Shown here: one piece after another, positions 21,937 to 43,490 of the stretch
Position numbering within the stretch: the first letter of the stretch is position 1
How the letters are laid out: every line of letters starts with the position of its first letter
Source of the DNA: Octopus vulgaris
Taxonomy: Eukaryota
Direction: 5' to 3'
DNA length: 64,000 nucleotides
Assembly: GCA_951406725.2 (NCBI GenBank)
Contig: OX597817.1
Span: forward strand, 79,484,001 to 79,548,000
Notes under the pieces: model-generated
What the model was told of the DNA's origin: nothing
Seen by the model: only the letters and a program-made list of their open reading frames with translations
Databases searched by the model: none
Made by a program: the position numbers and the translations under genes

Positions 21937-22041
21937 TCACGTGACCGACCAGACCATCTGATGTTGTTACACATCGTTGTCACAATGCGTTCGCATTGTT
22001 TTAGCCTTCGAATGACGCCACCCCGCTGGCTAAGCGAGCAG

Positions 22042-22075
<34 letters not shown>

Positions 22076-22101
22076 GTATGTATATATATATTTATATATA
22101 T

Positions 22102-22518
22102 TTTATAAAAATAGGGTAAAGTAAAATAATTTACTTTACCACATACCGAGCTTTTTAGAAATAGCAGCCAAAAATTTGGCTATTTCTTCTACTGCAAGAA
22201 AAGTCTCCCAGACAATGCATACTCAGAAATAACTCACATAGGTATAAGGGAAAAACAACGAAGAAGAAATATCTGAGCTGATGAAGGAAATGTTGGCGTT
22301 TAGTCAACTAATCCAGAAACAGGCTTGTCCTCGGGTGATCTCATATGGATGTGATCTTTCGTTGTTTTTCCCTTATACCTATGTGAGTTATTTCTGACTA
22401 TGCATTGTCTGGGAGACTTGTCTTGCAGTAGAAGAAATAGCCAAATTTTTGGCTGCTATTTCTAAAAAGCTCGGTATGTGGTAAAGTAAATTATTTTACT
22501 TTACCCTATTTTTATAAA
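22102..22518. repeat. Near-perfect inverted repeat, ~163-bp arms and 90-nt loop
   Basis: 22102-22264 is the reverse complement of 22355-22518 with only a few differences. Adjacent to (TA)n. Confidence 0.92.
22271..22336 (+). ncRNA. Type I hammerhead ribozyme
   Basis: Stem I ATCTGAG/CTCGGGT (7 bp including G-U), core CTGATGA (22278-22284), stem II GGA..GTTGGC-gttta-GTCAAC..TCC, GAAA (22316-22319), self-complementary stem III ACAGGCTTGT, and cleavage triplet GUC (22327-22329). Confidence 0.8.
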
Positions 22519-22654
22519 GTAATATTTCAAATATACCGTAAATGGTCGTTTTACATACCGAACACTGCTCGGTCGAATTAATTAATAATTAATTAATTTT
22601 ATCCTTTTTTATTGACAATATATTTATATATATATATTTAATTTATACATATAA

Positions 22655-22689
<35 letters not shown>

Positions 22690-36660: not shown

Positions 36661-37875
36661 TAGGGGTTTGACAAAATAATAAAAACACCTAGCATCATAG
36701 CATCATAATTTTGAAATATCTATAAAACTGTCAAAAGCTTGTTTATTTTTACGTTTTTTGATTTATTATTAGTGTTGCTTAATATGTTATGCTAAAATTG
36801 CTGTTTCTTTTCAAATATCATCAGAAAAAGGTAATTAAAATTCATTAAAATGACAGATCTATCGGTCTTTCAAAGAGGTCAAATTGTTGGTGCTCGTATG
36901 GCAGGTGCTAGTGTAACAAAAACAGCTGAAATGTTTGGTGTATCAAGAAGTACTGTCTTGAAAGGAATGACAGCCTTTGAGAAAGGGGGGAAAACCTCCT
37001 TGTCGAAACAAAGCTTCTGAAGAAAACCAAGACTTTCAGATAGGGGCCATCGGACTCTTACACGAATTGTTGGAAAGATCACAAAAGTACAGCATCCAAA
37101 ATTACTGCAGAGCTTAATGACCACCTGAAGAACCCAGTTTCCACAAAAACCTGTTTGCTGGGAGCTGCACAAAGCCGGATTTCACAGGAGGGCAGCAATC
37201 AGAAAACCACTACTTTCAAAAACAAACGTTGCAAAGCATTTAGAGTGGAGTAAAAACCTACAGAATTACCCTATTTCCAACAACTGGCCGAGTATATGCT
37301 GGAAACAGCCAAAAGAAGACTGCCTTCTTCCAACTGTTAAACATGGAGGAGGATCTGTGATGATCTGGCAGGGGGCTATATCTTGAAAATCTACTGGCCC
37401 AGTAATTTACCTTCATGGCAGAATTAATAATCAAGACTATTTAAGCATTTTATCTGATCAAATTCATCCTATGGTTGCAGAACTGTTTCCAGAAGCAAAC
37501 ACAGTCTTTCAGGATGATAATGCACCAATTCACACAGCTAAAGTTGTTACTGAATGGCACAAGGAACATTCTAGTGAAGTTGAACATCTTATCTGGCCAC
37601 CACAGTCCCCAGATCTCAATATTATTGAACATTTATGGTGCATTTTAGAAAACCAAGTAAGGAGTCAATATCCTCCACCGACATCACTACAAGAATTGGT
37701 AGACTGTTTTAGCTGAAGAATGGATGCATATTCTTTTGGAAACAATTCAAACTTTGTATGAGTCTATACCTCATAGAATTCAAGCTGTAATTACCGCCAA
37801 AGGCGGTCCTATCCCATATTAAAATAAATTTGTTTGAAATTTTTAGGGTGCTTCCATTATTTTGTCCAGCCCCTG
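36661..37875 (+). mobile_element. Tc1 (DD34E) transposon, inactivated
   Basis: ~29-bp TIRs (TAGGGGTTTGACAAAATAAT / rc CAGGGGCTGGACAAAATAAT). Pseudo-ORF 36850-37822: MTDLSVFQRGQIVGARMAGASVTKTA...PTVKHGGGSVMIW...FQDDNAPIH...WPPQSPDLNIIEHLW, with stops, frameshifts and deletion of the first catalytic D motif. Confidence 0.95.
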
Positions 37876-38274: not shown

Positions 38275-39525
38275 TGAAGGGTGTTCCTAAGGAGTGGGAT
38301 AAATGAAACTTGGCGTAATTATTAGTCCTTCTGTACATAGCAACTACCAACGGTGACACACTTCTCCCATCACTTTATGCAGCTGTGAAGACTGCATCTG
38401 TAGAAGTCGGTAGGTTGCGTCTGGAGCCAAGACTTTACATTGGAAATAAGTTCATCAGCCTCCAAAAAGTGCTTCCCCTTTTAAAAAAAGACTTCTTAAC
38501 TGGAATGAGGTGGAAGCCAGATGGTGTAAAGTTGGGAGAGTAATGGGGATGTGGAAGGATTTCATAGCTGGAGGGTTGTGCTTTCATCTGGGCAACATGC
38601 ACATTGTGAATTGGGGTGTTGCCTTGGAGGAGGCGAACTCCTTCAGTCAGCATGCCACGCCTCTCTCTTTTGATAGCGTCTAGCAATTTCTGCATCAGAG
38701 AAGCATAATATGCCCCATTAATTGTGGTGCCCTTTACAAGAAAATCCATCATCACTACTCCGCACTGGTCCCAAAAGACTGAGCATCACATTGCTTGCTG
38801 AGGATTGAACGCGAGCCTTCTTTGGAGGTAGGGAGTTATCATGCTTCCATTGCTTTCACTGGACTTTAGTCTCATGATCATGGTGATGGACCCATGTTTC
38901 ATCCTGTGTGATAAATCTGCTGGAATAGTCCTCATTTTCTTGGCACATTGCCAAAAAAGCTTGGGAGCAATTGACCTGTTTCTGCTTCTGAAAATGTGTG
39001 AGCACCCAAGGAATCTATCGTGCAGAAAATTTCTACATGTGCAAATGGTCATAAGTGATTTTTTTCCATGGACCCTTCCCTTATCTTCACTTATTGAGCT
39101 AGTTGCCAAATAGTTATGTGGCAATCTTCCAAAATGGTGCTTTCCACTTTATGGATGTTGTTGGCATCAATTGCAGATTGTGGTTGTCCAGGAACAGGAG
39201 CAGTGTCCACTGATGTCTGACCACGTTTGAACTGGCAATGCCAGTGCTTGACTACATCGTATGATGATGCATCATCATCATAAACTTCTTTCATCACAGT
39301 GAAAGTACCTTTCAAGTATAAGAACCTGATCACTGGTCTGCATTCAACTGCTTCCTTTACAACACCTTAGTCCCCTTCAACAGCATTAACAGACAAACGA
39401 ATTCTAGTAGAAAGCTGTAATTTACAATGTGTCATGTAGAGACATGTAAGATTACACCAGTATAAGTTCTGTTTTCTGCAATCACTGGAAATGGGTCAGA
39501 GGAAATCTTTAACGAACATCCCTCG
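38275..39525 (-). mobile_element. mariner (DD34D) transposon, inactivated
   Basis: TIRs TA-TGAAGGGTGTTCC and TA-CGAGGGATGTTCG. Fragments VKHWHCQFKRGQTS and DFLVKGTTINGAYY...LLQGNTPIH...LPHPHYSPNFTPSGFHL. Confidence 0.92.
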
Positions 39526-42124: not shown

Positions 42125-43490
42125 ACACAGATATTTACCAATATTTAGATTTTAGATTTTTCCACCCTCCCCATATAAAAAAAGGATCGTTCTATTCCAT
42201 ATAGCAAGACATATATGCTCAATAGTTACAGACACAAATAGATGAGAGACACAACTGGTAGATCTAAATATGTTCCTTCAAAGACAGAAATACACCAAAT
42301 GCATAATAAGCCATGCCATATCCAAAGCAAAGGAAATCCTAATCATAACCTTATGGAGAAACACTAATACTGAGTATTAAGACAAAAATATAAATACAAA
42401 TATTTCATTGTTGTCACCCATATTCCTAAGAACCACAACATCCTACATTTGGTCAAATGATACCAATTTTACATAAATCTTCAAATTGGTGCAGGCATGG
42501 TTATGTGGTAAGAAGCTGGCTTCACAACAACATGGTTCTAGGTTCAGTCCCACTGCGTGGCACCTTGGGCAAGTGTCTTCTACTATAGCTTCAGGCTCAG
42601 CAAAGCCTTGTAAGTGGATTTGGTAGACGGAAACTGAAAGAAGTGCATTGCATATATATATGTATGCATCTATTTATGTGTGTCTTTATGAGTGTTTGTC
42701 CCCCATCATCACTTGAACTGTTGGTTTGTTTACATCTTCGTAACTTAGTGGTTCAGCAAAAGAGACTGATAGGATAAGTGCTAAGTTTTAAAAAGTCCTG
42801 GGGCTGATTTGTTCGACTAAAACCATTCAAATCAATGCTCCAACATGACCACAGTCAAATTACTGAAACAACTAAAAGAATAAATGAATAAAAGAATATA
42901 TCTACAACAAATACATTAAAAAATCACAAGCCATCAACAGCTGAAGACAACCACCAAATCTCAAGAGATTCCTAACAAAGCTGAAATTTACATAAAAGAA
43001 AAAGATAATGCAGATGACAAACTACGGAGACCCTCATAGTGGGACGCATGAAATAATTCAACAAGGAACAGCCAAAAGATTTAAGAATTGGAAGGAATTG
43101 AAAGTGAATGCAAACATGAATTTCAAAGGAAAAAATCTCATATCATGCCCACAGTGTGATGAGAAATACGTTGGAGAAATAGGAACAAAACTAACCAGTC
43201 ATGTGAACATGAGCAAACAGCAAATTAAGGATTCATCTCTTAGAAATGTTCCATGTGGGAGACATCTAGACATTTGGTAAAACAGAAAATTCAGAATATT
43301 CCTTTTTTACAAAATAAAAGAGGAAAATATCAACTGCAAAATGTAAAAGAAGTATACTTTATAAGAATTCTAAATTCAAAATTGGACTGAAAATAGTCAC
43401 ACCATTATTAAAAACAATTACCCCCATACACATTAGTTCAGCATGGATGTCTTTGAAAAGTTGAACATTGAAAGCGCTTACACATAAAGT
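42125..43490 (+). mobile_element. Penelope-like retroelement 3' part (RT thumb plus GIY-YIG), interrupted by a SINE
   Basis: HPPHIKK..IP..ARHICSIV thumb motif; NLISCPQCDEKYVGEIGTKL...QQIKD..LRNVPCGRHLDI...F.IF.FYK...KE.YFI endonuclease. SINE family A inserted at about 42491-42890. Confidence 0.85.

Follow-up and report, generated by a model that had tools for sequence, protein, structure and literature searches.

The window examined here, the whole 64,000-nt stretch of Octopus vulgaris DNA, contains a long hairpin with a hammerhead ribozyme motif exposed in its loop, and the question is whether this arrangement is a functional unit in itself or the by-product of the insertion of a larger mobile sequence. 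The inverted repeat reported in the initial annotation as near-perfect and about 163 bp long is real. Its arms were mapped at 22099-22262 and 22358-22521 (164 nt, 98% identity), and within them a core of 161 bp at 22102-22262 and 22358-22518 includes only 2 mismatches. The loop is 95 nt long, not 90 nt as first given. The fold of the hairpin (-287.6 kcal/mol, z = -38.8) was equalled by none of 100 shuffled sequences. The element does not end at 22518, as had been assumed, but family sequence continues for about 100 nt and the full insertion spans 22102-22622. The features of the locus are as follows, S1 and S2 being two fixed sites of the repeat unit at which arms end.

22086-22101, plus strand: candidate target-site duplication of 16 bp, left copy, within (TA)n; identical to 22618-22633 and of low complexity
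22102-22262, minus strand: inverted, 5'-truncated arm, repeat-unit positions ~96-256, ending at S1 in (TA)n
22263-22622, plus strand: sense arm, unit positions 1-360, truncated at the 5' side 8 nt ahead of stem I and ending at S2
22271-22336, plus strand: type I hammerhead motif with a short near-palindromic stem III, from the sequence; predicted cut after 22329
22271-22277 and 22330-22336, plus strand: hammerhead stem I, with G-U at three of the seven pairs
22278-22284, plus strand: hammerhead core CTGATGA
22285, plus strand: bulged A just 3' of the core
22286-22288 with 22312-22314, and 22292-22297 with 22303-22308, plus strand: interrupted stem II
22315, plus strand: additional A directly 5' of GAAA
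22316-22319, plus strand: GAAA
22319-22328, plus strand: near-palindrome (stem III)
22327-22329, plus strand: GTC (GUC) cleavage triplet
22358-22518, plus strand: right hairpin arm, the sense-arm stretch of which the left arm is the mirror image, from arm comparison
22522-22622, plus strand: one-sided 'tail' of about 100 nt between S1 and S2, from copy comparison
22618-22633, plus strand: right copy of the candidate target-site duplication, its first 5 nt overlapping the end of the element

The 16-mer proposed as target-site duplication occurs three more times on the plus strand of the window. The parts of a type I hammerhead lie in the loop at the positions originally assigned to them, with the CUGANGA core, GAAA and NUH in the required order and GUC at 22327-22329. 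The loose core pattern on its own is not uncommon within the window. The comparison with hammerhead covariance models that had been proposed earlier gave no support, because the Rfam scans matched no hammerhead model, left the loop without any match and returned repeat-driven microRNA matches only. The exact pattern of the full hammerhead was found 254 times in the genome, as against 0 times for the reversed control.

A query consisting of arm and loop was compared with the octopus genome itself (2.8 Gb), and 84 BLAST matches were obtained from the 40 scored of 1722 candidates. In most copies the loop is followed by the right arm and the left arm is absent. The sequence common to the copies upstream of the loop closes a head-to-tail unit of about 560 nt with one hammerhead per unit, and arrays of up to about 3.6 units were identified. 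This mobile unit lacks the long inverted repeat. A natural two-unit stretch has a GC content of 0.345, below 50%, and with a longest open frame of 81 aa is non-coding. Non-coding tandem repeats of type I hammerheads have been described in animals as non-LTR retrozymes (PMC7229834), and such retrozymes were proposed to be non-autonomous derivatives of Penelope-like elements (PLEs), one of nine tested dimers being cleaved (bioRxiv 10.64898/2026.07.22.740005). Judged by its sequence, the octopus family is an animal non-LTR retrozyme of the PLE type: head-to-tail units each carry a type I hammerhead at the level of the family, of which the window copy is a fragment. The window locus is a truncated, inverted insertion of this family, and its hammerhead motif is real.

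With the retrozymes described in these two reports the octopus family shares low-GC, non-coding head-to-tail units with one type I hammerhead each, dispersed monomers and multimers, a weak palindromic helix III and co-occurrence with PLEs. Its unit of about 560 nt exceeds the 170-400 nt of the former report and falls within the 51-972 bp of the latter. It differs by an extra A between C11.1 and G12, and the window copy differs in being a sub-unit fragment with an inverted arm. The sense arm of the window locus is 97.5% identical to its nearest other copies, and therefore the insertion is likely recent. The proposal of a young non-autonomous retroelement of PLE or retrozyme type is supported. 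Several sister retrozyme families (L147, L156, L196-L208, L166/L175/L182 and L320) share the S1-S2 region, which they match at 70-75%, and the motif held in common with them has 5445 matches in the genome. Their units are about 585-600 nt where measured, and their hammerheads have a long stem II and a palindromic stem III.

The organization of the copies was analysed in a sample chosen independently of score through a 24-nt motif close to the 3' end; 100 of its 105 matches were resolved into 84 distinct insertions. A total of 40 insertions consist of two arms joined back-to-back (5'-to-5'), 41 of a single arm and three are complex, while none is convergent. Inverted repeats of at least 50 nt are present in 27 of the 40 back-to-back insertions, that is in about a third of the sample (27/84). 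Among 128 arm ends, 118 are located at S1 (unit position ~256-259; BLAST extends to 273, into TA) or at S2 (~360), the two fixed sites being about 100 nt apart. TA-rich flanks accompany 84 of these 118 ends as compared with 22 of 336 background windows, indicating microsatellite targets. Since the flanks are pure (TA)n, target-site duplications are unreadable in most of 27 pairs.

The two ends are not combined at random. In 32 of the 33 back-to-back pairs whose two arms both end at a fixed site, one arm stops at S1 and its partner at S2 (p about 3e-9 under independence of the ends); the remaining seven pairs have one end elsewhere than S1 or S2. The 5' truncation points are scattered and arm lengths vary, the junction gap having a median of -2 nt, in which BLAST overlaps include chance extension. 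The layout with the ribozyme in the loop is one outcome among many, because it depends on where the two truncated arms stop. In a sister family with a 600-nt unit, 13 of 18 back-to-back pairs combine S1 with S2 and none S2 with S2, in a set chosen by an S2-ended query. In a second subfamily, a clean S1 and S2 combination was found for only two to three of 13 back-to-back pairs, most of them combining S1 with another end.

Some copies show further details. A cluster of 5' truncations at unit position 156-158 (9 of 121 arms) lies just ahead of an internal stem-loop, which suggests a pause site of the reverse transcriptase (RT). In the L252 insertion, the short arm stutters several times over a ~35-nt piece before it reaches S1, which would fit repeated restarts of the RT. 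At L277:1108-1330, about 100 nt upstream of a family copy, a different long palindrome carries another hammerhead-like motif.

PLE insertions are described as 5'-truncated, as partial tandems, often with an inverted 5'-truncated copy and a tail of 30-40 bp at one end, and as favouring microsatellites (PMC8557442, PMC3846280). The octopus copies show the corresponding features of a non-autonomous PLE, i.e., 5' truncation, an inverted 5' copy and a one-sided tail longer than described. As a locus the window insertion is ordinary, a retrozyme fragment with the kind of inverted 5' copy that is known from PLEs. The best-supported reading, to which we assign a probability of about 0.86, is a single recent insertion of the ~560-nt hammerhead tandem repeat, likely copied by a PLE enzyme; the mirror arm probably arose in the course of the insertion. 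What is observed in favour of this reading is the structure of the family, the two fixed 3' ends, the (TA)n flanks, the variable 5' truncation and the back-to-back joining.

The steps of such an insertion may be envisaged as follows. A PLE protein with RT and GIY-YIG domains would cut both strands of a (TA)n tract; each DNA end would then serve as primer for the RT on a retrozyme RNA, multimeric or circular, one at S1 and the other at S2; and the two truncated cDNAs would be joined 5'-to-5' with little or no overlap. At the window locus, the S2 arm would have extended slightly beyond the hammerhead and its S1 partner would have stopped about 20 nt short of it, leaving the ribozyme in the loop. 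The use of one site per arm in 32 of 33 pairs, together with the 17 of 32 pairs of a kind that fold-back cannot produce (see below), indicates that priming from both cut DNA ends is likely. With a purified PLE protein in vitro, both target strands were cut and extended, and reverse transcription began at two internal sites of the RNA between which the tail lies (PMC11167929).

A broader proposal goes beyond the window locus, namely that the copies record PLE insertion as such, both cut ends priming reverse transcription each at its own fixed site, so that inverted repeats and tail are products of one event, and that the core with the extra A may be a new active form of the hammerhead. As a whole this proposal is tentative, and we hold it slightly less probable than its negation. 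Counting against the best-supported reading given above are a tail of about 100 nt as opposed to the 30-40 nt described, the less clean pattern of the second subfamily, the lack of a helper match in the loci compared, a unit exceeding the 170-400 nt of PMC7229834, the absence of an Rfam match, and the observation in the in vitro study of no difference in start site between the strands (PMC11167929).

The state of the ribozyme was evaluated on the 42 copies of the 84-insertion sample that were parsable. Of these, 39 retain an intact core and all 42 the GTC, and all 42 carry the additional A ahead of GAAA, whereas the sister families run straight into GAAAC. The pair 10.1-11.1 does not directly adjoin the core, an A being present on both sides of the G-C (22285 and 22315). 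The A that follows CTGATGA sits where PLE hammerheads usually have a bulge (PMC4209133). In one more distant copy, the A before GAAA is replaced by T; this T could pair with the first A, and hence an 'A-A pair' is also a fair reading. The doubt about activity that had been raised from the A-A pair at the stem II base is supported. As compared with the minimal PLE hammerheads described (PMC4209133), the octopus motif differs in its longer helix I (6-7 bp), a 3x3 internal loop in stem II and this extra A before GAAA.

Stem II remains paired across subfamilies. Stem I covaries: all 72 cells are paired and four of six pairs are changed on both sides among three related families, in a set of nine hand-picked hammerheads in which kinship inflates the score and the structure was taken from the same sequences. 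The stem III of the sister families is a perfect palindrome of other letters, and their stem I sequences differ as well. In folding calculations, stem III of the window copy as a monomer consists of only 2-3 bp and has a pairing probability of 0.01 in the hairpin, while its palindrome forms a self-duplex of -12.3 kcal/mol, in support of the proposal that palindromic stem III points to activity as a dimer. The active monomer fold of the window copy lies 2.6 kcal/mol above the minimum, in which the core CUG is paired with CAG. From these predictions, hammerhead activity likely needs a second copy, which would be offered by the tandem arrays and is absent at the window locus. In tandem source arrays, the likely task of the hammerhead would be to cut multimers to unit length, neighbours pairing through the palindromic stem III, and the lone window copy is probably a dead end whose activity is low or absent.

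The family could also move as a PLE parasite with the hammerhead inactive or nearly so in all copies, its core being vestigial. This reading concerns activity only and is compatible with the insertion explanation; we consider it unlikely, though the strongest of the alternatives. It draws on the additional A shared by the 42 parsed copies and on the lack of any imprint of cleavage on the insertions. Thus 39 arms continue across the unit junction beyond the cleavage position, and arm stops at unit positions 66-70, where the cleavage site lies, number two against 1.0 expected, with no pile-up. The absence of excess stops together with the read-through arms indicates that the templates were likely uncut multimers or circles. 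It is also in line with this reading that eight of nine Xenopus retrozyme dimers stayed uncleaved in vitro (bioRxiv 10.64898/2026.07.22.740005) and that ribozyme mutants had no effect on PLE insertion in vitro (PMC11167929). On the other side, a vestigial ribozyme accords poorly with a core intact in 39 of 42 copies, an invariant GTC and a stem II that stays paired across subfamilies, and cleavage persists despite a natural U-U mismatch at the stem II base (PMC7229834, PMC3088659).

The inverted arm could instead have been formed by self-priming or fold-back of the growing copy, with the same family and the same helper, as head-to-head repeats of PLEs have been explained (PMC3846280). This would be compatible with the window locus, one of 15 among the 32 S1 and S2 pairs in which the shorter arm is nested within the longer one, and two junctions (L244 and L258) fall in internal palindromes. 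A fold-back copy cannot, however, give two arms each with sequence of its own, and at least 20 nt private to each arm were found in 17 of the 32 pairs, and seven pairs have arms without any overlap. Furthermore, both arms end at defined sites of the element against (TA)n. The probability left for fold-back is accordingly low, and priming of the two arms from the two cut DNA ends is retained as the preferred origin of the mirror arm.

The idea from which this analysis started, that the hairpin with its self-cleaving loop is the functional unit and that the rod, once opened by cleavage, becomes available to RT priming, editing or Dicer, is now very improbable. The fold is indeed very stable, stem I is paired with a probability of about 0.3 in the hairpin and of 0.0 in the one native tandem context compared, and a nearly identical layout is seen at one further locus, L269. 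The junction of L269 is nevertheless unlike that of the window, arm lengths and junctions vary among the insertions, and the loop hammerhead is not intact in most of them: an intact hammerhead lies outside the paired part in 10 of the 40 back-to-back insertions, and in the other 30 it is absent, cut through or double-stranded. The stem III probability of 0.01 and the absence of a second hammerhead in cis also argue against it. What moves is the ~560-nt tandem repeat, the rod arising anew with each insertion, and the 'ribozyme-hairpin' element opened by cleavage is not supported. With two stops near the cleavage site against 1.0 expected and 3' ends at two other fixed sites, nothing suggests that the cut primes reverse transcription.

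Contigs of three presumed-RNA runs and one unclassified run were compared with 21940-22655, and the arm-loop junction of the window locus was bridged by none among the contigs listed. Two presumed-RNA contigs cross the hammerhead but carry A at 22352, as in copy L005. Neither locus-specific RNA nor an editing cluster in the arms was seen among the assembled contigs compared. Two A>G differences were not taken as editing, each being present in a single contig and one of them also in the unclassified run.

The motif had been described as antisense to a host intron. Two phase-compatible exon-like segments of the minus strand, 28860-28767 and ~18957-18779, do flank the element, and its location within a minus-strand host intron is plausible, but no homologue backs the segments. 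Homologue searches with one exon-like segment found nothing real, two matches to repeat proteins being rejected, and Pfam analysis of 138 open frames of the window detected Tc1/mariner pieces only. If the intron is real, its RNA would, according to the fold prediction (-281.3 kcal/mol), form the rod without the ribozyme. Broken remnants of Tc1/mariner transposases are located in the window at 36835-37713 (plus strand) and 38438-39366 (minus strand).

A foldback or miniature DNA transposon (MITE) with terminal inverted repeats around a captured hammerhead, which the long near-perfect inverted repeat, the TA context and the Tc1/mariner remnants in the window might bring to mind, can be dismissed almost entirely, as the copies are not uniform units bounded by terminal inverted repeats but contradict such a structure by single arms in 41 of 84 insertions, variable arm lengths, a 100-nt extension at one end and head-to-tail units.

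For an insertion driven by a PLE enzyme, a candidate source of the enzyme is present, since the genome contains intact open frames of 781 aa with both RT and GIY-YIG, as expected of autonomous elements, and the 3' ends of these elements likewise abut (TA)n. A link in sequence was not found within the sets compared: the unit had no match in the 3' regions of 40 GIY-YIG loci (150 of 6136 GIY-YIG candidates scored), none in 30 copies of a second PLE family except one chimeric junction, and no 3' sequence in common with 20 PLE stretches compared together with relatives of two sister families. PLE pieces adjoining the family copies at L042, L098, L125 and L156 turned out to be separate insertions. 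At L270:912-1626 (G000:C14:17705070-17708070), an S2-ended arm of the family is joined 5'-to-5' to a PLE of the autonomous type, represented by its GIY-YIG end and 3' region, with no TA at the junction and (TA)n at both outer ends. Its interpretation as a joint insertion was downgraded, the PLE part being at most 88% like sampled relatives while the retrozyme part is 98.5%, and as a lead to the helper it is weak.

The young 781-aa RT and GIY-YIG elements include those at L111:1245-4668, L114 and L042 and have many intact copies. The 3' regions of these elements and of the second PLE family contain minimal hammerhead-like motifs with a U3-A8 core variant. In the window itself, decayed fragments at 2044-2380 and 42168-43316 resemble the RT and endonuclease regions of PLEs.

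The octopus insertions resemble the PLE insertions described in 5' truncation, partial tandems, an adjacent inverted 5'-truncated copy, a one-sided tail, microsatellite targets and a hammerhead near the 3' end, and differ in that the unit lacks an RT or endonuclease frame and the tail is about 100 nt instead of 30-40 nt (PMC8557442, PMC3846280, PMC11167929). How tandem and inverted PLE insertions are formed was named as an open question (PMC8557442). The pairing of one arm per site was counted here for the octopus family. In twin priming of LINE-1, two target-primed cDNAs are joined back-to-back through short microhomology, with or without overlap, and the second primer anneals at variable internal places. 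The back-to-back joining is alike, but the octopus arms end at fixed sites of the element, unlike L1. No twin priming of Penelope with inverted copies was found in a literature search that covered few subscription papers, and it may therefore have been published.

The value of the finding lies in the family rather than in this locus, and the part most worth following is the rule of one arm per site. The regular arm ends across copies provide a testable clue to the insertion step of PLEs: the 32 of 33 pattern and the arm pairs without overlap speak for priming at the two DNA ends rather than for self-priming, a point that the in vitro system already published could address. The invariant extra A beside the core lends itself to a simple ribozyme assay. 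Where transcription passes through its copies, the family could supply double-stranded RNA, as 27 of the 84 sampled insertions contain inverted repeats of at least 50 nt. For the broader proposal, a family with more than 5,000 related ends in this genome, generating long hairpins in microsatellites on a large scale, would form a ready set of templates.
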